Notes under the pieces: model-generated | The model's database searches: none | What the model was told of the DNA's origin: nothing | What the model saw: the letters and a program-made list of their open reading frames with translations, nothing else | Shown: positions 12,569 to 61,061 of the stretch, piece by piece | Position numbering within the stretch: position 1 is the first letter of the stretch | How the letters are laid out: every line of letters begins with the position of its first letter | Made by a program: the position numbers and the translations under genes | Origin: a virus | Taxonomy: Duplodnaviria; Heunggongvirae; Uroviricota; Caudoviricetes | Strand: one strand, 5' to 3' | Virus record (IMG/VR): IMGVR_UViG_3300037484_000445 | Coordinates: 259,863 to 323,862 of that record | DNA length: 64,000 nucleotides

Positions 12569-12873
12569 TCGGCAGATTCGAGAAAGACCCTCAGGCCCAA
12601 GGCTGCATCGAGCCCGCGGATAAGCGTTGGCAACTCGTCATCGACAAGGACGGCTACCCGCATCTCTACGTCGAAGTCAACATAGCCGACGACAACGGTG
12701 TGAAGACCAAAGGCATGTTCTGCCTCGAGGACATGATGAACATCACCGTCAAGGAACTCATGGATGAGGGTGAGTTTGGCGGTGCTCTTCCCCCCGAAGA
12801 AGAGGAAGAGGCCATGGCCGAGTACCTAGCCTCACGAGAAAAGACTGGGATCCCGTGTCCCAGAAAGCTCTAG
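12553..12873 (+). CDS. hypothetical acidic protein
   Basis: GTG start. Confidence 0.4.
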   Translation: MQNITIGRFEKDPQAQGCIEPADKRWQLVIDKDGYPHLYVEVNIADDNGVKTKGMFCLEDMMNITVKELMDEGEFGGALPPEEEEEAMAEYLASREKTGIPCPRKL

Positions 12874-13397
12874 TCGAGCTTGGATAGGTATTGGACGGGC
12901 ACACGATCTGTGAGCCACACACCATTGGTGGACAGATAAAATGTGTGCCCGTCGATGAACATGTTCCGGGCCTTGACCAGCAGGACGTGAGGCAAGGGCC
13001 GTCGCTTGGCCACTTTGATGGCCGTCTCCGTGTCCGCCGAAAGGTGGACGTGGTGGCGGTTCATCTTCCTCAGGCCCTCTTTGAGGATCATCCCCAAAAA
13101 GTGGCCTGAGGTACCATGGTAGAGTAACTCAGGTGGCTGAGTAGCCTCATACCCTAGGTCAACTTCAACCGAATGCCCTTGGCAAGCACGGATCTTGTCG
13201 CCGTTGAACTCGTAGCGCTTCTTCTGGTCCGTGTTGACGATTTCGTACAATTCCCCCGTAGTCATTGAAGCCGCTTTTACAAGCTCTTCAATCGACACCC
13301 AGCCGGAAGCGTCGAGGGTTAGCCCAACGCTCCCAGGGTCATGCCTGAGGATCAGGCTGAGGTGTTTGCTCTTGCGTGTGCGAGTCTTGTTGTCCAT
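12870..13397 (-). CDS. kptA: RNA 2'-phosphotransferase, Tpt1/KptA family
   Basis: SKHLSLILRHDPGSVGLTLDASGWVSIEEL..HGTS..HVHL is the hallmark of Tpt1/KptA. Confidence 0.85.
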   Translation of the reverse strand: MDNKTRTRKSKHLSLILRHDPGSVGLTLDASGWVSIEELVKAASMTTGELYEIVNTDQKKRYEFNGDKIRACQGHSVEVDLGYEATQPPELLYHGTSGHFLGMILKEGLRKMNRHHVHLSADTETAIKVAKRRPLPHVLLVKARNMFIDGHTFYLSTNGVWLTDRVPVQYLSKLD

Positions 13398-13978: not shown

Positions 13979-15334
13979 TTACACCGACGCCGCCACCTCC
14001 GGAATCAAACCCAACAGTTTTTCTTCGGAGTTCAAGGTAGGATCTTCAGTTACCCTTTCCAACAGCTCGGCCAAGATGTTTCCAACCTTGGGCCCTGGGG
14101 GGATGTTGAGCAACGTCATCACGTGGTGGCCACTCACCGCCAACATGCTGGACGACGTGGGGATGGTGCCCACGCTGTCGATCCGGTGCTTGAGCTCGTT
14201 GATAGTGGTGATCTCCAGAGGAATGAAGGCGTTACCCTTACCTACGATGTCCGCTATAGCCAACGTGGTTAGGTGTGGGATGTGCTCGACTCCGACACTT
14301 CGCATCCATCTACGGACGGCGGCATCACTCCAATCGGATTCATATCGAACGAAGTGGTGCCGGACCAAGTGGGCCACTCGGGCGACTTCGTCGCTCGAAA
14401 ACCTCAAGCGGGTCATCAAGTCCTGCGTCATAGCGGCCCCGATATGTTCGTGGTCGTAGAACGTAGCGTCCCCGTGTTGTGGGTGGGGCTTCTTCGAATC
14501 TGGCTTGCCGATGTCGTGAAACAATGCTGCAAACCTGAGCATGGGGTCGCTGGCCGGGCAAGTATCCACCACCTTCATGGTGTGATTCCAGACATCGAAC
14601 TCATGGTACCGATTCTGGCCACACCCCACCATAGGGAGCATCTCCGGCAGAATCATTCCAAGCATCCCCGTGGAGGCCATCAGGTTGAAAGCTCTCGAGG
14701 GTTCAGCAGCGGCCATGGTCTTGGTCAATTCATCTCGGATCCGCTCAATAGAAACCCTCCCCAGTTGGTCTAGGGTATGGGCTAGGGCAATCCGAGTGGA
14801 GTCGATCAGGGTCAAGTTGTGCGTGGCCGAAAAGCGGATGGCTCGAAGAAGACGAATACCATCCTCACGGAACCGGTCAAATGAGTTTCCAACCGTACGC
14901 AAAATCCCTGCTTTGAGGTCCTGCCGTCCGTTGTAGGGGTCGAAGTAGTAGCCGCCACCCTCGACAAGAGGGTCGAAGGCTATGGCATTGACCGTGAAGT
15001 CCCGCCGGGCTAGGTCATCGTGGATGCTCGTGGAGAACTCGACGCTATCCGGCCTTCGACCGTCGGAATAGGTGCCATCCTTACGGTAGGTTGTAACCTC
15101 AAATCCTTCGCCCTCGAGACGGACCGTGATAGTCCCGTGCTTGGCTCCGATGTCCAACGAATGGCTGAAGCACCGTTGAGTCTGTTCGGGGGTGGCATTG
15201 GTCGCAAAGTCCCAATCATGGACGGACCTTTGAAGCAATAGATCTCGAACGGCACCACCTACAAGCCACGCTTCGAAACCCTTATCCTGTAGAGTCTGGC
15301 AAATGGCTATGACTTTTGGGGGGATGGAGTTCAT
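13979..15334 (-). CDS. cca: CCA-adding tRNA nucleotidyltransferase (class II) with HD domain
   Basis: GGAVRDLLL, DWDFAT, ARRDFTVNAIAF in the head domain; HD motifs HTMKVVD..FHDIGKP. Confidence 0.85.
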   Translation of the reverse strand: MNSIPPKVIAICQTLQDKGFEAWLVGGAVRDLLLQRSVHDWDFATNATPEQTQRCFSHSLDIGAKHGTITVRLEGEGFEVTTYRKDGTYSDGRRPDSVEFSTSIHDDLARRDFTVNAIAFDPLVEGGGYYFDPYNGRQDLKAGILRTVGNSFDRFREDGIRLLRAIRFSATHNLTLIDSTRIALAHTLDQLGRVSIERIRDELTKTMAAAEPSRAFNLMASTGMLGMILPEMLPMVGCGQNRYHEFDVWNHTMKVVDTCPASDPMLRFAALFHDIGKPDSKKPHPQHGDATFYDHEHIGAAMTQDLMTRLRFSSDEVARVAHLVRHHFVRYESDWSDAAVRRWMRSVGVEHIPHLTTLAIADIVGKGNAFIPLEITTINELKHRIDSVGTIPTSSSMLAVSGHHVMTLLNIPPGPKVGNILAELLERVTEDPTLNSEEKLLGLIPEVAASV

Positions 15335-15655: not shown

Positions 15656-15814
15656 ATGAGCTCAATACACCTGACCATTTGCGATCATTGCGGGAACCCT
15701 GAGCATGGAATCCCCACGATAGATATATGGTTCAAGGTGGGCCAGAGCTACACATCTGTTCGACGTGCCAGTCGAAGCCCTTTCGACGTATATCCCCACA
15801 CCCCAAGATGGTAG
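15656..15814 (+). CDS. small ORF (52 aa) with CDHCGNPEH knuckle
   Basis: Below the track threshold, but preceded by GGTGTAAGG plus 7 nt like other genes. Confidence 0.25.
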   Translation: MSSIHLTICDHCGNPEHGIPTIDIWFKVGQSYTSVRRASRSPFDVYPHTPRW

Positions 15815-15839
15815 CCCTAAAGGAGCTTCTTAGCGAGGT

Positions 15840-15946
15840 ATGGCGTGGAGGAGTTGAACCTCCGTCCGCAGGATGAACCCCACGTGCTTTAGTCCGTGTC
15901 TAAGAGGGTCAAGCGCTTGACCCTCGGAGATCCAAGCTAACGCCAT
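15840..15946 (-). ncRNA. tRNA-like element with extended non-canonical body
   Basis: On the minus strand the 5' end ATGGCGT pairs perfectly with the 3' end ACGCCAT (7 bp), followed by discriminator A. A canonical T-arm GGAGG-TTCAACT-CCTCC sits directly before the 3' acceptor strand. U8/A9 are present. The body is 76 nt rather than about 45 and contains the perfect palindrome GAGGGTCAAGC|GCTTGACCCTC (15904..15925). Confidence 0.35.
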
Positions 15947-16230
15947 GGGTTCAACCTATCAAACCCTTGAAGCCAAGTCAAAAGCTCACAACAGGACTTA
16001 GCGGGGCTCCCGGCTCAACAATCAGTAGGGCACCATGTTGGCTGCCAATCACGGTATTTGCAGGGACCTCGCGAATTTCCACCGGCTTTTTGCAGATGGG
16101 GCACGAGGTCTCTGACGGCTCAAGGATTACGACGTCACAGACGCCACAGACAGATAGGTTGAACATGAGGCTACCCTAAGTGAGAAGGGTAGTATACAGC
16201 ATCCTCAAAGACTTGCCACTCTGCCCCCAG

Positions 16231-17127
16231 TTACGAACCGGGGAAGTGAGGCATCACTTTGGACTGCCGAATCAGGTCTCCCGTTGCAGAGCGCCTGCCG
16301 CCGATGCTCTCGTTGAGCCAACAACGGACCTCAACACCTTGCTTCCATGTGAGGGCCCACACGAAGAGTGTGCCACTGACTAGCATTTTCTGGCCTGTGT
16401 ACTTAGACTTCTTCAATACCGGCGGGATCACAAGTTCGAAGTCATTGAAGTCTCTGGAGAGGTGGACAGCACGTCCTTCATGTCTCACTAGGATTTCGGA
16501 CTTCGAGGAGTACACAATCCCATCAGAATAAGAGGCGGCAAGGTTCCAATCAACCCCTTGTCCATGCATCTTCCACGAAGCTATAGCGTAGTAACGATTC
16601 CCCTCGAACACAAATTCCTTCCACAAGAACTTCGGGAATTTGTCGAGGGTAGACTTCTCCCAGCATCGATCTAGAAGTGGTATGAGGAATGGAACAAGCG
16701 GCGACTCAGTCTCTTGAGACAGAGGGCCTTCAAGATCGACAATACCGTCATCCTCGACGGACGTACCTAAAAAGTCTAAGGGATCGTCTGTGAGAAGACC
16801 TCCCCCAAGATCGAGGGTGAGTTTGTCCTCGGGATCAATTCGCTTTTTGACGGCATCCAGCTCAGGAACGACGCAGGTCACTCCTTCTCGAGGTGTGTGC
16901 TTCAACGCCAACAGCTCAGGAGTTAGTTGGACCTCTTTGATCTCGAGGTAGTCCAGGAACTGTTGGACGACTTCTTGTATGGTGCCCTTGGGAGTTTTTT
17001 CGTGAACCATCCTAGCGACTAAGATGGGGAGAAACTCAACCAGTTCCTCAGTACTACGGGTTTTGAACGTAGCAAACACATAGGAACGCAAAGCACGGCT
17101 ACGAGTCTTTGACTCACGCTCTGACAT
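16231..17127 (-). CDS. hypothetical protein (298 aa)
   Basis: ORF. Confidence 0.55.
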   Translation of the reverse strand: MSERESKTRSRALRSYVFATFKTRSTEELVEFLPILVARMVHEKTPKGTIQEVVQQFLDYLEIKEVQLTPELLALKHTPREGVTCVVPELDAVKKRIDPEDKLTLDLGGGLLTDDPLDFLGTSVEDDGIVDLEGPLSQETESPLVPFLIPLLDRCWEKSTLDKFPKFLWKEFVFEGNRYYAIASWKMHGQGVDWNLAASYSDGIVYSSKSEILVRHEGRAVHLSRDFNDFELVIPPVLKKSKYTGQKMLVSGTLFVWALTWKQGVEVRCWLNESIGGRRSATGDLIRQSKVMPHFPGS

Positions 17128-18148: not shown

Positions 18149-18586
18149 CTAAGCATTCTGTGCTTGAAGTTTGGGGTTGTTCGCTTGACTCCGCATCTTC
18201 TCAACAAGGCCACTGTAGCTCTCTTGAGCCAGACTCACACCGGTTTCTTTCTCGAAGAGGTTCCGAAGCGCCATTGCTTCCAACTTAGTCTTCCGGCATT
18301 TGGTCGTAAATCGAAGCGACTCACCCGGCACGTAGGCCATCTTGGCGAAGCGGATCGAATAGGTGTCGTCAGAGGCTAAGTCGATTCGACAATAGTTGGC
18401 CTCATTGGCCGAGCTACCTAGACAAAAACTCAATCCAGTCCGAAAAGTCAAGAATGTCTTGGCCTTGACCTTCAACATCAAAGTGGCCACCGTCGCGTCT
18501 AGGGCACCCATGATTTTCTGAGCCGCTGAGCTGTGTTGGACTTGCCCCACTTGAGGGAATACCGCCGAAATGAACTCGTCTTTCAT
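18149..18586 (-). CDS. hypothetical protein, paralog family A
   Basis: Its C-terminus (..NLFEKETG) is shared with 18603..18935 (..SLFERETG). Confidence 0.5.
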   Translation of the reverse strand: MKDEFISAVFPQVGQVQHSSAAQKIMGALDATVATLMLKVKAKTFLTFRTGLSFCLGSSANEANYCRIDLASDDTYSIRFAKMAYVPGESLRFTTKCRKTKLEAMALRNLFEKETGVSLAQESYSGLVEKMRSQANNPKLQAQNA

Positions 18587-18602: not shown

Positions 18603-18935
18603 CTAGACTCGGACTATGCGAGGGATCCTCAAAGCCAAACCCGTTTCACGCTCGAACAACGAGATAAGGTCGTCAGCGTAAATGTCGGTGAAAGTGCTCT
18701 TAACCTTGACGCTTGTGCCACGGATCGATACGAACTTGACAGTATATACATCGGACGGCTCCAGGTCAACGACGCAGCAATTCGAGCTGTTCGAAGCGCG
18801 AGCCTTGAACCGGAAGCTGAGACCCGTCTCAGTGGCATCAATGTTGTAGGCGCCCAGCATGGCGGTCAGACGGCCACCGAGTTGTTGAATGATGGTGTTG
18901 GCGATTGCGAGGCGTTCTTCTGAAGTGCGGGTCAT
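18603..18935 (-). CDS. hypothetical protein, paralog family A
   Basis: Paralog of 18149..18586. Confidence 0.5.
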   Translation of the reverse strand: MTRTSEERLAIANTIIQQLGGRLTAMLGAYNIDATETGLSFRFKARASNSSNCCVVDLEPSDVYTVKFVSIRGTSVKVKSTFTDIYADDLISLFERETGLALRIPRIVRV

Positions 18936-31116: not shown

Positions 31117-31149
31117 CGATTCTGTGAGCTGCCGGTGTATACATCCCCC

Positions 31150-38028: not shown

Positions 38029-38069
38029 GAGGTCCTTAACTTACACCGGGGATGGTGTATATACCCTAG

Positions 38070-43191: not shown

Positions 43192-43455
43192 GTGGACTCC
43201 TTCAAAAACGACGAAAAGCTGATTAGTGACGTAAAGGTAGGGGATCGCTACTACGAGTACGATTACAAGGGCCTTCAAAACCACACCGGAAATATCGTCA
43301 CTGTTGTTCGAGTTACCTCCCTTCAAGCGGTCTTGTTGAACGGTAAGCGCTTTAGCCGTATCACAGGCAACACCATTGGGCCTGACAAGTACACGGTCTT
43401 CTACCTGCCGATCACGCCCGCTCGCGAGGCTCGGCCGAACCACGACGCCTATTGA
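43192..43455 (+). CDS. hypothetical protein
   Basis: ORF. Confidence 0.45.
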   Translation: MDSFKNDEKLISDVKVGDRYYEYDYKGLQNHTGNIVTVVRVTSLQAVLLNGKRFSRITGNTIGPDKYTVFYLPITPAREARPNHDAY

Positions 43456-43820
43456 TGCTAAAAGTCATCCTATTCCTCGACGATAATCCGGCTCGACACA
43501 CCGTCATGGATGCCCGATACCCAAATGACTTGGTCGTGCATGCCTACAACATCCATGCTTTTCGAGCAGCGCTTGAGGAGCACGAACACTTTGACATGAT
43601 CAGCCTGGACCATGATCTCAATGATTTTGAGGCTCGGAGCTACATTGGAGATAGCGACGCCACAGGCCGTGACGCCTGTGGCTACATGATGAAGTACCGT
43701 GACAAGCTACCGCCAGTGATCATCATCCACTCGGGGAACGATGACGGATCTAAGGACATGGCGGAATTTCTAGCTAGTCGTGGAGTAGCCTCCCGCCGTC
43801 GGATCCTCTACCCCCTCTGA
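43452..43820 (+). CDS. CheY-like receiver (REC) domain-like protein
   Basis: ILFLDDNP, DMISLDHDL and PPVIIIHSGND occur in receiver-like positions. Confidence 0.4.
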   Translation: MMLKVILFLDDNPARHTVMDARYPNDLVVHAYNIHAFRAALEEHEHFDMISLDHDLNDFEARSYIGDSDATGRDACGYMMKYRDKLPPVIIIHSGNDDGSKDMAEFLASRGVASRRRILYPL

Positions 43821-43821
43821 A

Positions 43822-45225
43822 TCAATCGGCACCCTTGATGTTGGCCAATGGATATAATCTGTTGGCCACTCGGGCAATCTTGTTGTCCGTAAGGACACTA
43901 AGGACTTCGTCCAGGTCTTTGTAGACCCGGCAACATTCATCCAATGGAATATGAGGGTGGTTCGTGGCGATGCCCACCACCGTATCCCCTCCAAGGGTTC
44001 GCTCGACCGTTCGCATATCCTCATCAATTTGGTCCTGCTGGCTCTCGAGTTCACGTCGAGCTCGGCCTCGGGCCATCAAACGACCTGAGCCGTGATTGAC
44101 TGAGCACGCCGATTGAATAGCCCCTGATTGTGCGAAAAGAATAGCGGCCCCATCGTACATCGACCCCGGGATGAGACAGGGGTGGCCGGTCTTTTCCCAA
44201 ACGGTTCCCACGAGGTCAGGGTGGCCCCCTGGAAAAGCTCTAGTGGCCCCCTTACGATGAACAAATCCTTTCTTGGTGGAACCATCAGGAAGAAGCAAGG
44301 TTTCCTCCTGGACGAGGTTGTGACTGATCTCGTAGTAGACAGTAGAGTCTCCCTTGAAAACCTCTTGGAGAGCTTCCTGTATGCCTCTAACTATCACATG
44401 GCGATTAGCGATAGCAAAGTTGGCAGCTGAGTTGTGATAAGCCCAATATTCCTTACCCAGGGCTTCATCTATCCTTAACCAGGATTCCTCACGTCGATTA
44501 TCTGGCAACCCTCGAAGCTCAGCTCCGCGATGAAAGAAGTGATTGGCCGTTTGCCATCCATAACCTCTCGATCCACAGTGGACCATCACGAAGACGTCTC
44601 CTGTTGCCTGGTCCGCCAGAAGTTCTACGTAGTGATTACCTCCCCCGACGGAACCTAGTTGAGGAACAACCTTGTCATAGGCCTTCTCGATGGCCTCCAG
44701 GTCAAGGTCATCTGGGATGGGAATGTATTGTCGTTCACACAGATTGCTATTGACGCCTAAAGCCTTAGCTCCATATCGGAGGATCTCTTGAGCCTTCTTG
44801 TGGCTGAAGGCCGGCATCAACTCCGGACGATTCGAACCAACCCCCGTGGCAATACGCTTTTCTACCTCTCGAACCCAAAGCTCTCGCTTGGCAAAATCCT
44901 GAACATCCTGAGTCTTGAGAGTGGTTTTTAGGGCCACAATTCCACAACTCACATCGTAACCAGACCCCGCTTGAATGAGAACATTGTCCGTGACGATCAC
45001 ACAACCAATAGGTACGCCGAAGCCCATATGACCATCAGGCATACCGTAAACCCCAGTCACGCCTTCATATGAAGCTGCATCGTGAAGCTGACTCCAAAAG
45101 GCTTCTTCAGAAGCCTCATATAGAGTCTCTGAAAAGAACACGTGAGCCTCAACCCTCATCGTGCCTACCTTAGGTAGGACGTAATGACTAGGACTTACCG
45201 GTTGAGCAATGTACTTGAAGGACAT
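43822..45225 (-). CDS. rtcB: RtcB RNA 3'-phosphate/5'-OH ligase
   Basis: MPDGHMGFG, GGGNHYVEL, HCGSRGYG, HNLV and NHGSGR motifs. Confidence 0.9.
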   Translation of the reverse strand: MSFKYIAQPVSPSHYVLPKVGTMRVEAHVFFSETLYEASEEAFWSQLHDAASYEGVTGVYGMPDGHMGFGVPIGCVIVTDNVLIQAGSGYDVSCGIVALKTTLKTQDVQDFAKRELWVREVEKRIATGVGSNRPELMPAFSHKKAQEILRYGAKALGVNSNLCERQYIPIPDDLDLEAIEKAYDKVVPQLGSVGGGNHYVELLADQATGDVFVMVHCGSRGYGWQTANHFFHRGAELRGLPDNRREESWLRIDEALGKEYWAYHNSAANFAIANRHVIVRGIQEALQEVFKGDSTVYYEISHNLVQEETLLLPDGSTKKGFVHRKGATRAFPGGHPDLVGTVWEKTGHPCLIPGSMYDGAAILFAQSGAIQSACSVNHGSGRLMARGRARRELESQQDQIDEDMRTVERTLGGDTVVGIATNHPHIPLDECCRVYKDLDEVLSVLTDNKIARVANRLYPLANIKGAD

Positions 45226-48411: not shown

Positions 48412-48864
48412 CTATACACCAGAGGGCTTAAGTGCCTTGCGGATTTCCCGCATCATGTGGGCCAATTCCGTGACCATGTAGTCCTTGATGTCGTCCCGCG
48501 GCGGCCCCCGACGATACTCGAAGGGTAAGTGCGTAGAGGGATCGACTAATTGCACCTGGGGGATCCGCCCTGGTGTGTAGACGTCAAGGATTCTAGGAAG
48601 TGAAGAGAGTTCCTCGAATGGTTTCAACCATAGCCAGCTATGCTCACACATGCCGTAGTAGCCATCCGTGTAAGTCAGATCGGTGAACCGGGCCACAGCT
48701 CGAACCAACTCATGGCAACGAACGGGCGAGCCGTCCCATTCATAAGGCACACAGGCAACGAGTTCACAGGCTTTATTGTAGAAAGCACGTTCTCGCGCTG
48801 TGAATACCTCTTGATAGGCGTACCCTTGAAACTCAAGCACTTTCTGGCACCTTTCCAGTGTCAC
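48412..48864 (-). CDS. hypothetical protein
   Basis: ORF. Confidence 0.5.
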   Translation of the reverse strand: MTLERCQKVLEFQGYAYQEVFTARERAFYNKACELVACVPYEWDGSPVRCHELVRAVARFTDLTYTDGYYGMCEHSWLWLKPFEELSSLPRILDVYTPGRIPQVQLVDPSTHLPFEYRRGPPRDDIKDYMVTELAHMMREIRKALKPSGV

Positions 48865-49060: not shown

Positions 49061-50134
49061 TCACGCTTCTATCTCGGCTGGGAAGTATCGATTGAACCAA
49101 CGTGAAGCAAATTCCCGGGCGGACTTCAAAGCACTTAGGCTCTCTGGCAGCTTCATCTCTATGTCGTTGCTGGGGCCATACCAAGAGAACTCCACGGTGC
49201 CCAATGAGCCATAACCTGAAGAGTTACCGAAGTCATCAAGGCACCCCAATTTGATTAGGGGTGAGGACGTCTGAGCCTCAACCACTACTAGATGCCCCGC
49301 GTGCTTGTCCACAAGGGTCAATGCCTCCAAGACCCTAGGACAGGGCTTGAGGTCGTTAGCCAGAAGCGCCAAGCGCCTGACCCTGTCACGTTGGACAGGC
49401 GTTAGGGTCTTAGTGTCGTAATGACTCACGCTGAGATGCACTCCGCATCGGGACAACTCGAGAGAAGCCAGCTTGTTCGAACTTCCTTTTTCCTCAAAGA
49501 GAGCGAAGTCTACGTTAGAGCTATCCGATCGCCCCTTAAACATATAGGAACCCTCAGGAAATGTGGCGGCTAAAGCCTCAATTCGTGCAACAGGGCTGAA
49601 GACTACAGGATCCGGGGGAGCGTCGCCTTCGATGATGTATTGGGCGGCCCATGCCTGAAGCCCCGTAATAGCGTCCTTGACAGTGCCTCTAACCAAGTCT
49701 GGATATCGCTCGGGATTGTCGATGTTTACATTGAATCCCTTCAACTCGAATGAAGCTAACACTGTAGAATCTACGTAGACTTCAAAGCTGAAGATCGATT
49801 TCTCTGTGTTGATGTGACAAACTCGGATGTTTTCGGGAAATCGATAAGCGAGATCCAAAGAGGCGTGGACCCGATCACGATTGGCCAGGTTGCCGTCCAC
49901 ATAGACCATAGCTCGAAGCAACTTCTTGTGTACTTCACCTAGGTGATTGACCGTTAGGTTACTGATCCACAATACCGTCGGACTTTCATCGTTGGGCATT
50001 CGCAGGGTGGCCATACTTGCGTTGACGTCTGGCACCCTAAGATTTAGCTCCAACAGGGCATCAAACTGATGAAGTCGGAGATCCTCCGGAAAGGTCTCTG
50101 CAATAGCTTTTGCAACAACATGAAGTCTGGACAT
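49061..50134 (-). CDS. hypothetical protein (357 aa)
   Basis: ORF. Confidence 0.55.
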   Translation of the reverse strand: MSRLHVVAKAIAETFPEDLRLHQFDALLELNLRVPDVNASMATLRMPNDESPTVLWISNLTVNHLGEVHKKLLRAMVYVDGNLANRDRVHASLDLAYRFPENIRVCHINTEKSIFSFEVYVDSTVLASFELKGFNVNIDNPERYPDLVRGTVKDAITGLQAWAAQYIIEGDAPPDPVVFSPVARIEALAATFPEGSYMFKGRSDSSNVDFALFEEKGSSNKLASLELSRCGVHLSVSHYDTKTLTPVQRDRVRRLALLANDLKPCPRVLEALTLVDKHAGHLVVVEAQTSSPLIKLGCLDDFGNSSGYGSLGTVEFSWYGPSNDIEMKLPESLSALKSAREFASRWFNRYFPAEIEA

Positions 50135-53548: not shown

Positions 53549-53577
53549 TGGTATATACACCGATTCGGTGTATAACG
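53549..53577. promoter_or_regulatory. tail-to-tail motif pair TGGTATATACACCGATTCGGTGTATAACG in a divergent region
   Basis: Serves 53077..53544 (minus) and the GTG at 53583 (plus). Confidence 0.5.
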
Positions 53578-54673: not shown

Positions 54674-55086
54674 TCCACGAGACTGACGTGGAACTCATTG
54701 AGGCGGTACACGATCCAGCCCTGCACAAGCCTCTCGTTGAGTTGGCTGAGCTCGTGTCCTTTTACTCGGGTCGGATCAAGCTTTGGTACACCATTGACCG
54801 TTTAGTGCAGAATTGGCCTATCTTTTACTGCACTCCCATGGTGGGCCTGTCTATTGTCAGCTGCACGGTTAAAGACTTGGCGTGGTCCATAGCTGCCACG
54901 GTGGTGAGTCTCACGGGTGTGGTCCTCATATCCAGCTGGGCTAAGTGGGGAACCCTTCCGGGCCCTAAACGAAGGGCCAAGTACAGAGAAAAGTTGGATC
55001 GATGTGCGGAGATATCCCACCAATTGATCGACGGAAAGCTATCCTTGGAGGAGTTCGAAGCGGTGATAGGAACGCTTAAGCCGTGA
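54670..55086 (+). CDS. membrane protein
   Basis: ATGA overlap with the previous gene; hydrophobic segments. Confidence 0.45.
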   Translation: MIHETDVELIEAVHDPALHKPLVELAELVSFYSGRIKLWYTIDRLVQNWPIFYCTPMVGLSIVSCTVKDLAWSIAATVVSLTGVVLISSWAKWGTLPGPKRRAKYREKLDRCAEISHQLIDGKLSLEEFEAVIGTLKP

Positions 55087-55388
55087 AGGGCCTCAGTCTG
55101 CGGCTTGACCCTGAAACTGAGGAACAGTTGCGTCAGGATGCCCGGAGAATGGCTCAAGAGGCATGGCACGAGGTTCAGGTCCTCGAGGCTCAATTGACCG
55201 CCCAGCATCGACTGAAGGCTCTCGAGGCCGTATACGGATCAGGTCGAAGGGCCAGATAGAATAGGCTTGCTCTTTTGAGCAAGAGCTGTCAACTTGGGCT
55301 TGTCAGGTTCGGATTTGTGTTTCTTCTGGCAGTTGTGTGGGTTTGGCGTAGTTTTGGGAACGCTTGTGTGAACGAAGGGCTTCGCCTG

Positions 55389-55862
55389 CTAGTGGCGAGG
55401 CCCTTCGCCTTTTGAGCTCACCCGATCGTCAACCCGTGGACTTCGGGGCATCACAGACAAGTCGATGTACATGGAGGCCCCGGTGTGAATTGACCAGGCC
55501 ATCCGCCCATGGGGTTTGAGCGTCGGGTTCTTACCTTCTTGCCCTTCGATGATGATCCCGCCGACCACAACCATAACAGCTTCAACCAGTTTGAAGGGCT
55601 CAACAGCTTCGTCCGTCCATGGAATGGCGACCAGGTCGAAATCCCGGGAGATGGATCCGTGAACCGCAATCGCATAGCCACATTGGCGAGCAGCGTGAAT
55701 TATTGAAGGTAGAACGGATAGATAGCAAAGGGGTCGAAGGCGTAGCCCGTCCTTGTATTCGCGAGCAGCCTCAGCAATTTCGGCATCGTCCATAGCTTCG
55801 AAGTACACCGCCCCAAAACTTTCAAGGGGCCCAAACCATATCGACTCGAACTGTGGCTCCAA
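55389..55862 (-). CDS. hypothetical protein
   Basis: ORF. Confidence 0.45.
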   Translation of the reverse strand: MEPQFESIWFGPLESFGAVYFEAMDDAEIAEAAREYKDGLRLRPLCYLSVLPSIIHAARQCGYAIAVHGSISRDFDLVAIPWTDEAVEPFKLVEAVMVVVGGIIIEGQEGKNPTLKPHGRMAWSIHTGASMYIDLSVMPRSPRVDDRVSSKGEGPRH

Positions 55863-60175: not shown

Positions 60176-60619
60176 TCAAATCCCAAGCTCCTTTGGATCG
60201 ACCAGCTTGTAGAAGTCCTCTGAGGCACCGAAGGTTTGAAGCTTACGAGCATTCTGGCTCATGAATTCTTGAACCGCCGAAGTCCACCCTGAGTCGTGTG
60301 AGCATAGCAGCGTCCAAGGAGACGATCCTTCAACGTAGTCCTTGCCGGACTTGACGTACGAATCATCCTCTTCCTCGTTGTATTCGAGGTCCTCAAGGGG
60401 GATGACGTTCCAACGCTCACGTACATACACGCTCACGTAGTTGCATTCAGCGTAGAGAACCAGGTCAACGTACCTGTAGCCCTCTTCCTTATCGTGGTCA
60501 ATACTGGTCGAGAATCCAACGACGAACGCCTTGGGTTCAGGCTTCTTGGATTGCCACTTACCGGCTACACGTTCAAAGGTTCTACAGATGGCTGTTCCGA
60601 GTAGGTAGGCGAGGGACAT
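60176..60619 (-). CDS. hypothetical protein
   Basis: ORF. Confidence 0.5.
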   Translation of the reverse strand: MSLAYLLGTAICRTFERVAGKWQSKKPEPKAFVVGFSTSIDHDKEEGYRYVDLVLYAECNYVSVYVRERWNVIPLEDLEYNEEEDDSYVKSGKDYVEGSSPWTLLCSHDSGWTSAVQEFMSQNARKLQTFGASEDFYKLVDPKELGI

Positions 60620-60665
60620 GCCTACAATACGAGTGGAACCTCGTAGGACTTAATGGCCTTTTATC

Positions 60666-61061
60666 TTAGGCCCGCTCACCAGGGAATAGTTCGGGTGTCT
60701 TTCGAGTGATCCCCTCAGCCACATACCAAGCTAGGGCTAAGAGCCCGCCATGCAAGCGAGCCCATCCCTGGCCATCCTTACCCTCAGGGACGGCCTCGAG
60801 TCGAGCCCCAGGCGGTACGCTGGCGTCCCAAAGTGGCATATTAAGGCCATTCACACCATAGACGACGACATCTAACATCTGGAGATTACCTTCCCAGGTG
60901 GTCAAGTACGATTGGCCTTCGTGGTCAATCCAACCCAAGAGGTAAATATGATCCCAAGTTAGCTTTTCTGGAGGCACTAAGTCGCTCATGGCCTCACAAG
61001 CCATATCAGGAACAAGCCCAGCAAACAACCGACTAGAATGGCCACCACCGTAGGTCCCCAC
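60666..61061 (-). CDS. hypothetical protein
   Basis: ORF. Confidence 0.45.
   Translation of the reverse strand: MGTYGGGHSSRLFAGLVPDMACEAMSDLVPPEKLTWDHIYLLGWIDHEGQSYLTTWEGNLQMLDVVVYGVNGLNMPLWDASVPPGARLEAVPEGKDGQGWARLHGGLLALAWYVAEGITRKTPELFPGERA

Follow-up and report, generated by a model that had tools for sequence, protein, structure and literature searches.

Phages encode transfer RNAs (tRNAs) and enzymes that repair them, together with a handful of puzzling tRNA-like RNAs, among them species 1 and 2 of T4 and phage YrlA. Elsewhere, mascRNA (from MALAT1), the 3' tRNA-like structures of plant viruses and tRNA-Other of B. cereus are tRNA-shaped, are handled by RNase P, RNase Z or a CCA-adding enzyme, and are put to non-decoding uses. 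Their organisms, origins and architectures differ from those of the RNA described here, and to our knowledge none of them pairs a hairpin insertion in the D-loop with a sealed anticodon arm. This study concerns a 107-nucleotide (nt) tRNA-like RNA encoded in a stretch of 64,000 nt (the window) of the IMG/VR record IMGVR_UViG_3300037484_000445 (positions 259,863 to 323,862; Caudoviricetes). The analysis revealed a small RNA that derives from tRNA but does not decode; its gene is single-copy and restricted to one clade of very large phages. As tRNA mimics are a known kind of RNA, it is the combination of features that defines a new family: an open acceptor, a sealed anticodon arm, a hairpin in the D-loop, its own host-type promoter and an obligatory linkage to a CCA-adding enzyme.

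The RNA reads AUGGCGU UA GCUU GGAUCUCC GAGGGUCAA GCGC UUGACCCUC UUAGACACGGACUA AAGC A, followed by the second hairpin, CGUGGGG UUCA UCCUGCG, and then by GAC GGAGG UUCAACU CCUCC ACGCCAU, with A as the next base (Table 1). A previous sequence-only reading of this DNA had described a perfect 7-bp acceptor stem with U8 and A9 next to it, a T-arm abutting the 3' acceptor strand, an intervening segment of 76 nt that leads from the 5' acceptor strand to the T-arm, and a perfect 22-nt palindrome, with halves GAGGGTCAAGC|GCTTGACCCTC. All of these were confirmed on the minus strand. Its statement that the intervening segment lacks standard D and anticodon arms held only in part: the D-loop is indeed 44 nt long and there is no 7-nt anticodon loop, but a D-stem and a hairpin at the anticodon position do exist. 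The conserved insertion in the D-loop amounts to about 36 nt. None of 300 copies of the window randomised with an order-1 Markov model contained a 5-bp Watson-Crick T-stem, a TTCRANN loop and an adjoining 7-bp Watson-Crick acceptor closure together. The only other T-arm-like motif of the window, CTTCA TTCGAGT TGAAG (49739-49755, minus strand), lies inside an open reading frame (ORF) of 357 amino acids (aa), without an acceptor stem, and was judged to be a chance occurrence.

Table 1. Features of the RNA and of its surroundings, in window positions.
Feature	Position	Strand	Details
tRNA-like RNA, 107 nt	15840..15946	minus	nt n = window position 15947-n
Acceptor stem, 5' strand, nt 1-7 (AUGGCGU)	15940..15946	minus	pairs with 15840-15846 (nt 101-107, ACGCCAU)
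D-arm	15886..15937	minus	D-stem nt 10-13 (GCUU) with nt 58-61 (AAGC); 44-nt D-loop, nt 14-57
Inserted D-loop hairpin (22-nt palindrome)	15904..15925	minus	9-bp stem, nt 22-30 with nt 35-43; loop GCGC, 15913-15916
Hairpin at anticodon-arm position, nt 63-80	15867..15884	minus	6-7 bp, 4-nt loop
Variable loop, GAC	15864-15866	minus	3 nt, just before the T-arm
T-arm, nt 84-100 (GGAGG UUCAACU CCUCC)	15847..15863	minus	directly 5' of the 3' acceptor strand
Discriminator A	15839	minus	base directly 3' of the RNA
Promoter (predicted)	15953..15981	minus	-35 TTGACT, 15976-15981; extended -10 TG, 15960-15961; -10 TAGGTT, 15953-15958
CCA-adding enzyme gene	13979..15334	minus	Pfam PolyA_pol, PolyA_pol_RNAbd, HD, tRNA_NucTran2_2
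298-aa protein, function unassigned	16231..17127	minus	upstream neighbour; distribution as narrow as that of the RNA
Antisense 4-Cys zinc-ribbon ORF	15656..15876	plus	converges on the RNA; 73 aa in L001, L052 and L003
Tpt1/KptA	12870-13397		
DarG-like macrodomain	19667-20125		
RNA ligase PF09414	35224-35931		Rnl2-type
RtcB	43822-45225		adjoins a cREC_REC receiver protein (pair spans 43452-45225)
GGTGTATA motif, example site	31134-31141	plus	
GGTGTATA motif, example site	38054-38061	plus	
GGTGTATA motif, example site	48413-48420	minus	
GGTGTATA motif, example pair	53554-53561 / 53567-53574	minus / plus	

Relatives were gathered from the loci of the closest homologues of the CCA-adding enzyme and of the upstream 298-aa protein. 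Five further loci carry the RNA at the same place. The CCA protein is 97% identical to that of the window in L001, 85% in L003 and 67% in both L004 and L005, while L052 was reached via the 298-aa protein (78-80% identical); L006 holds an identical copy of the L005 RNA. A covariance model built on this six-sequence family (R1) gave 130 bits for the window and 111-125 bits for the five relatives, and it detected no second copy of the RNA in the window. In the six-sequence alignment, 97.8% of the 186 pair cells hold standard pairs, and compensatory double changes affect 9 of the 31 pairs (one in the acceptor stem, five in the inserted hairpin, two in the second hairpin and one in the T-stem). Column shuffles matched the observed values in 0-1 of 500 trials, and pairing fell to 38-53% when the 3' partners were slid by 1-3 columns.

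The sequence-only reading had staked its interpretation on the conservation of the acceptor and T-arm pairings in homologous phages, and the outcome spoke for the RNA. Both stems are 100% paired in the six sequences, and each shows one compensatory change from G:C to A:U in L005, at G4:C of the nearly invariant acceptor and from GGAGG/CCUCC to GAAGG/CCUUC in the T-stem. The T-loop reads UUCRANU in all six. With regard to the inserted hairpin, five of its nine pairs carry double compensatory changes, its GCGC loop is invariant, and it is flanked by the invariant single-stranded stretches GGAUCUC and CUUAG-CA-GG-C-A. The hairpin at the anticodon position has two pairs with double changes and three with single changes, and its tetraloop varies by lineage (UUCA, GUCA, UUUA, GAAU, UGGC). 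RNAalifold, run with no structure supplied, yielded the same four-arm cloverleaf, D-stem included, together with a few invariant pairs in the D region. In single-sequence folding with exact ends, this cloverleaf is the minimum free energy structure or lies within about 2 kcal/mol of it.

Among the non-Watson-Crick cells, 13 are G:U and 4 are A:C, so the structure belongs to this strand and to RNA rather than to duplex DNA. This bears on the proposal that the palindrome acts at the DNA level, as an operator or a recombination site, or that the locus is a leaderless micro-ORF read from the 5' AUG, both of which we consider extremely improbable. The palindrome is perfect in the window, but it is imperfect in the relatives, and its G:U pairs are kept on one strand only, which led us to reject a DNA palindrome. 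The perfect palindrome of the window is the fully paired state of a hairpin that wobbles in its relatives. As for a micro-ORF, an AUG stands at the predicted start of transcription in each of the six copies, and many genes of this phage look leaderless. The frame (15946-15830, minus strand) runs for 38 codons in the window, L001 and L052, but it comprises only 9 codons, with a stop at codon 10, in L003, L004 and L005 (MALAWISED, MAFAWISGG and MTLAWISGS). The micro-ORF was rejected for this unconserved stop position, and the frame is probably a by-product of the RNA sequence, though a notable one given the seemingly leaderless mRNAs.

The RNA was not found at remoter loci of the CCA-adding enzyme (37-57% identity; L029-L031 and L036-L051), and the family therefore seems confined to one clade. 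The close homologues of the enzyme lie on phage-like contigs of 33 kb to 458 kb (the longest on record), which fits a huge (mega)phage as the source. BLAST searches with the 6-kb neighbourhood and with the RNA against 50,697 GenBank phages returned nothing meaningful. Exact and degenerate DNA patterns gave only chance matches in IMG/VR, JGI metagenomes and GTDB genomes, and protein-seeded locus searches of IMG/VR gave no relatives. No equivalent architecture was described in Rfam 15 or in the literature searched.

Comparison with tRNA models indicates that the RNA is derived from tRNA. With filters off, R1 aligned end to end with all eight tRNAs of the T4 tRNA region (9-26 bits): acceptor fell on acceptor, 'UUAGCUU...AAGCA' on the D-stem, the second hairpin on the anticodon arm and T-arm on T-arm, and 42-46 model positions were swapped for the 5-10-nt D-loops of the tRNAs. 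Conversely, the Rfam tRNA model (RF00005) matched L005 over its full length at 32.1 bits (gathering score 29), under permissive filters only, with a 44-nt D-loop insertion, the D-stem aligned as such and a 6-nt loop in the anticodon arm. In the window and in L004, the RF00005 match ranks below weak matches to transfer-messenger RNA (tmRNA). These alignments agree with the suggestion of the sequence-only reading that this is an insertion-bearing tRNA-like RNA. As we read them, U8, G10, Y11:R24, G15, A26, C48, G53:C61 and U54 U55 C56 R57 A58 have equivalents in the RNA, GG and A stand at the places of G18, G19 and A21, and A14 alone is replaced, by G.

In comparison with a canonical class I tRNA, the RNA shares the 7/5 acceptor/T configuration, U8, the D-stem, A26, C48, G53:C61 and a 7-nt UUCRANU T-loop. 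It differs in its D-loop of 44 nt, which holds a 9-bp hairpin, as opposed to 7-11 nt, in G for A14, in its 3-nt variable loop and in a closed hairpin of 6-7 bp with a variable 4-nt loop, where a decoding tRNA has a 5-bp anticodon stem and a 7-nt loop with U33, anticodon and R37. Because the loops of this second arm differ in sequence and size among lineages, the RNA is unable to decode. What has been kept are the surfaces of tRNA that proteins read without the anticodon, and what has been rebuilt are the anticodon loop and the D-loop. ARAGORN reported nothing in the window in its default, intron, mitochondrial and tmRNA modes, and it found no canonical tRNA gene there or in nine related loci. 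Likewise, Rfam 15 gave no match in the window at gathering thresholds.

The sequence-only reading had also considered an intron-containing tRNA and a degenerate one. An interrupted tRNA spliced to a working one would be in keeping with the RtcB, RNA ligase and Tpt1 encoded in the window, and with its threshold relaxed to 80%, ARAGORN returns a model labelled 'tRNA-Lys with a 16-nt intron'. Nevertheless, the models obtained at 70-80% break the covarying hairpins. The D-loop insert is smaller than a group I intron would be and shows no group I features, and its junction is a 3-bp helix with loops of 1/2 nt and 2/6 nt instead of a 3-4-3 bulge-helix-bulge. Any excision would leave an anticodon arm with a variable 4-nt loop and no anticodon loop. 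A decaying pseudogene is contradicted by compensatory changes in four helices (nine pairs in all), by the invariant inserted loops and by a promoter that is conserved even among relatives with only 67% identity in their CCA proteins. Taken together, an interrupted tRNA or a pseudogene is very improbable.

The tRNA-like domain of tmRNA (RF00023) is also a non-decoding mimic, with an acceptor, a T-arm, a GGAC-type junction and no anticodon. However, the RNA has G3:C70 instead of G3:U70, has no mRNA-like domain or pseudoknots and possesses a true D-stem, and the helix beside GGAC is a local hairpin rather than the long-range P2. Among the about 110 ORFs of the window, none showed an SmpB, Ro60/TROVE, aminoacyl-tRNA synthetase or elongation-factor domain. 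The RF00023 matches are weak (10.7-20.8 bits against a gathering score of 47) and lie mainly on GGAC and the T-arm. We rejected tmRNA as an identity on account of G3:C70 in all six sequences, the absence of a tag or pseudoknots, and the 107 nt being taken up by two local covarying hairpins. Separately, nt 46-61 (15886-15901, minus strand; AGACACGGACUAAAGC) and the following AC resemble the conserved 3' segment of tmRNA AGACauaGACUAAGCAUGU, as does GGAC before the T-stem. This resemblance could be due to chance or to a distant relationship with the tmRNA tRNA-like domain.

These comparisons are relevant to the idea of an aminoacylated carrier or ribosome-directed mimic, which would be charged after CCA addition and would then serve as a donor outside decoding or mimic the tmRNA tRNA-like domain on SmpB, EF-Tu and the ribosome. 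The acceptor/T minihelix is intact with a nearly invariant acceptor sequence, the weak tmRNA matches cover GGAC, the T-arm and an AGACAnnGACUAAAGCA stretch, and a tRNA-dependent pathway of phage DNA modification is known (PMC13219725). On the other hand, position 3:70 is G:C in all six sequences, which gives no alanine identity. There is also no long variable arm, as required for serine, no G-1, as required for histidine, and the discriminator is not constant (G in L004, A in the other five copies). Given the G:C at 3:70, the lack of a long variable arm and the varying discriminator, charging appears unlikely from these identity elements. The best tmRNA score also remains far under its gathering score, and neither a tag ORF nor a pseudoknot is present. 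A carrier or ribosome-directed mimic is accordingly an unlikely explanation.

With regard to T4 species 1 and 2 (rnaC and rnaD), these are likewise stable small RNAs of a phage with no assigned function, and rnaC ends in a T-arm-like hairpin (CCGGGUUCGAAUCCCGG). Unlike the present RNA, they are co-transcribed in a tRNA cluster, of which there is none here, and have neither a comparable cloverleaf nor a promoter of their own. R1 gave 10.3 bits (E 0.09) on rnaC and nothing on rnaD, so no homology was detectable; the SegB/Septu paper contains nothing on either RNA. YrlA and other Y RNAs share with the present RNA a tRNA-derived D/T-arm module, an occurrence in phages, a link to RNA-repair genes and a protein-binding function (PMC4201824). 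In YrlA, however, the 'acceptor' takes the form of a closed stem-loop, the 5' and 3' ends pair into a stem that binds Ro60 and carries a GNCGAA motif, and Ro60 is encoded next to the RNA. The present RNA has an open acceptor, lacks this motif and bears an extra arm in the D-loop. A Y RNA was rejected as an identity on these grounds, on the absence of Ro60/TROVE from the window and on the lack of any Rfam Y-RNA match at E up to 10.

The region upstream of the RNA contains the elements of a promoter, with 6 nt between the -10 element and A1 in the window. All six loci share TTGAC(A/T), a spacing of 16-17 nt, TGnTAnnnT and then five or six nt to A1, and their flanks diverge. The pattern TTGAC-N14-16-TGNTANNNT has its sole match in the window here (0.17 expected). 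Judging from these motifs, this is probably a host-type sigma-70 promoter with an extended -10 element that would start transcription at nucleotide 1, so that the 5' end would need no RNase P. Given that this host-like promoter is unique in the window and that the downstream gene is preceded by a motif of its own (the GGTGTATA-type variants GGCGTATAGA, AGCGTATAGT and CCGTACTAGA, seen in L004, L005 and the window), the RNA is likely to be a separate transcription unit. At the 3' side, conservation among the distant relatives ends directly past the acceptor strand. The claim that no CCA is encoded was right in substance: the window reads A-CC-T past the stem, and this CC is missing in L001, L052, L004 and L005.

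The gene order around the RNA is conserved: a protein of about 290 aa, the RNA, the CCA-adding enzyme and a CxxCxxCC protein. The CCA-adding enzyme, which the sequence-only reading had placed next door, is encoded 505 nt downstream in the window, and it is downstream of the RNA and co-oriented with it in all six loci. Its best NCBIfam matches are the models of CCA tRNA nucleotidyltransferases, although under their cut-offs. We infer that this enzyme is the maturation partner of the RNA. An 89-aa ORF translationally coupled to the CCA gene was considered as an obligate partner and rejected, being truncated in L003 and absent in L005.

The position of the RNA, always directly upstream of the CCA gene and in the same orientation, and the lack of a terminator after it would also suit a cis-acting element, that is, RNase P/RNase Z punctuation or a leader bound by the CCA-adding enzyme, for the neighbouring mRNAs (the upstream 298-aa and 62-aa genes or the downstream CCA operon). 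This is quite unlikely, as the RNA has its own strong predicted promoter with a start at nucleotide 1, the downstream gene bears its own promoter-like motif, and in four lineages the RNA is separated from the CCA operon by a convergent ORF on the antisense strand. Moreover, a punctuation signal would not require the conserved D-loop insertion.

This antisense zinc-ribbon ORF bears on the description of the locus as the only 300-nt ORF-poor gap of the window, which proved incorrect on two counts: the conserved ORF lies inside it, and similar gaps occur at about 55086-55389 and 60619-60986. The final approximately 13 codons of the ORF correspond, in reverse complement, to the T-arm and the 3' acceptor strand. 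A 1-nt deletion near 15718-15727 breaks the window copy into two ORFs (15656-15814 and 15727-15876), reflecting either a pseudogene or a sequencing error. The ORF is absent in L004 and L005 and has 61 aa in a further locus, L035. Along with a 62-aa zinc-ribbon ORF upstream and the 89-aa ORF mentioned above, it is one of three small ORFs each missing in some lineages.

L035 (JGI Ga0184616_10000547) is 96% identical to the window, but positions 15792-16190 are replaced by 1.48 kb (L035 562-2041) encoding a 475-aa TnpB with Cas12f1-like TNB and OrfB_IS605 domains. This locus has lost the 62-aa ORF, the RNA promoter and the RNA, a deletion made in nature by the gene of a transposon-associated nuclease, and it has kept the 298-aa gene. 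The RNA is therefore dispensable in at least one natural variant, and hence accessory; such dispensability is typical of accessory or counter-defence genes.

The ~290-aa upstream protein has only five homologues in a large protein database, all within the clade. Across homologues that are 65-67% identical overall, the first 21 residues of its arginine-rich N-terminus (MSERESKTRSRALRSYVFATF) are invariant; beyond them lie an acidic linker, which is variable, and, at the C-terminus, a beta-rich domain. Its sequence makes this protein a candidate RNA-binding partner. It could then take part in a Y-RNA-like adaptor or ribonucleoprotein scaffold, in which the D-loop hairpin would bind a phage protein (e.g. 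the 298-aa protein) and the tRNA-like body would recruit tRNA-end enzymes (the CCA-adding enzyme, RtcB, nucleases), tethering the two activities. Y RNAs are known to tether enzymes, YrlA tRNA-like modules occur in bacteria and phages, and the YrlA of M. smegmatis receives a CCA (PMC4201824). The invariance of the single-stranded nucleotides and of the GCGC loop of the insertion, while its stems covary, is the signature of a sequence-specific partner, and the 298-aa neighbour shares the narrow distribution of the RNA. Nevertheless, no Ro60/TROVE or known RNA-binding domain is present among the ORFs of the window, the predicted structure of the 298-aa protein gave no informative match, and L035 keeps its gene although the RNA is lost. 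We regard such an adaptor as rather unlikely, though it ranks next after the decoy function described below.

Our best explanation assigns the RNA to a phage tRNA-repair and counter-defence set formed by the CCA-adding enzyme, Tpt1, RtcB and the RNA ligase; RNA-repair toolkits of this kind have been documented in jumbo phages (PMC7824862). The RNA would be transcribed early and alone from its conserved host-type promoter, starting at nucleotide 1. Its 3' end would be trimmed and, because CCA is not encoded, CCA would then be added, for which the phage enzyme encoded just downstream would be the natural candidate. The mature RNA would act in trans as a tRNA-shaped decoy, occupying a factor that reads the acceptor end and the elbow of tRNA, for example a host immune effector attacking tRNA 3' ends. 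It would itself stay out of translation, and a second contact, specific in sequence, would come from the D-loop hairpin. The sequence-only reading had suggested a decoy or a substrate for the adjacent repair enzymes, and such a role would agree with all of the present findings. Immune effectors that cut the CCA tails of tRNAs do exist (PMC13594972). We give this explanation as a whole, comprising the gene model, the maturation and the decoy function, an even chance of being correct. The trans-acting decoy function, taken by itself and judged from sequence features, is a tentative proposal. A related formulation, which we find possible though somewhat doubtful, is that of a purpose-built, anticodon-less tRNA surrogate, expressed at once from a host-type promoter and finished by the phage CCA-adding enzyme, which absorbs or redirects an effector that cuts or modifies CCA tails, or whose D-loop hairpin tethers such an effector to a phage protein.

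Several points weigh against the decoy explanation. A decoy alone does not explain the strict conservation of the D-loop insertion, and the 298-aa neighbour may just as well be a protein partner devoted to the RNA, a situation more in line with an adaptor or ribonucleoprotein role. Anticodon nucleases are the best-known tRNA-directed defences, and an RNA without an anticodon loop cannot compete for them. No intrinsic terminator was found after the RNA, so its 3' end must come from processing; the ends, the addition of CCA and any binding partner are themselves predictions. Furthermore, the whole comparison consists of six sequences from about five lineages, and the D-stem, being invariant, lacks covariation support and is backed by homology alone.

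The RNA represents a clean case of a tRNA that was stripped of decoding, kept the surfaces for end-processing and elbow-binding proteins, and gained a new arm. As it escapes ARAGORN and Rfam at default settings, similar genes have probably been missed in the genomes of huge phages. If it does serve as a decoy or adaptor in tRNA-targeting immunity or repair, an RNA player would join the conflict between phages and hosts over tRNA. In that case it would rank as the first RNA to act as decoy or adaptor in tRNA-directed immunity, and it would form a new class among the tRNA mimics. It would also provide a function for phage CCA-adding enzymes where no nearby tRNA genes were seen.

The rest of the window is packed with small ORFs, most of them without family assignment. 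Besides the genes in Table 1, those that could be recognised include ThiF, an ECF-like sigma factor and a tailspike domain of the K1-lyase type. The GGTGTATA motif, which is different from the promoter of the RNA, occurs 20 times in the window (0.85 expected). Most copies end 7-10 nt ahead of an ATG or GTG start that lacks a Shine-Dalgarno sequence, and divergent pairs, set back to back, are frequent. From its placement, the motif looks like the standard promoter of this phage, which would give leaderless mRNAs starting at the A of ATG. Finally, two adjacent paralogous genes on the minus strand (18149-18586 and 18603-18935) both match phrog_9437, which has no assigned function.

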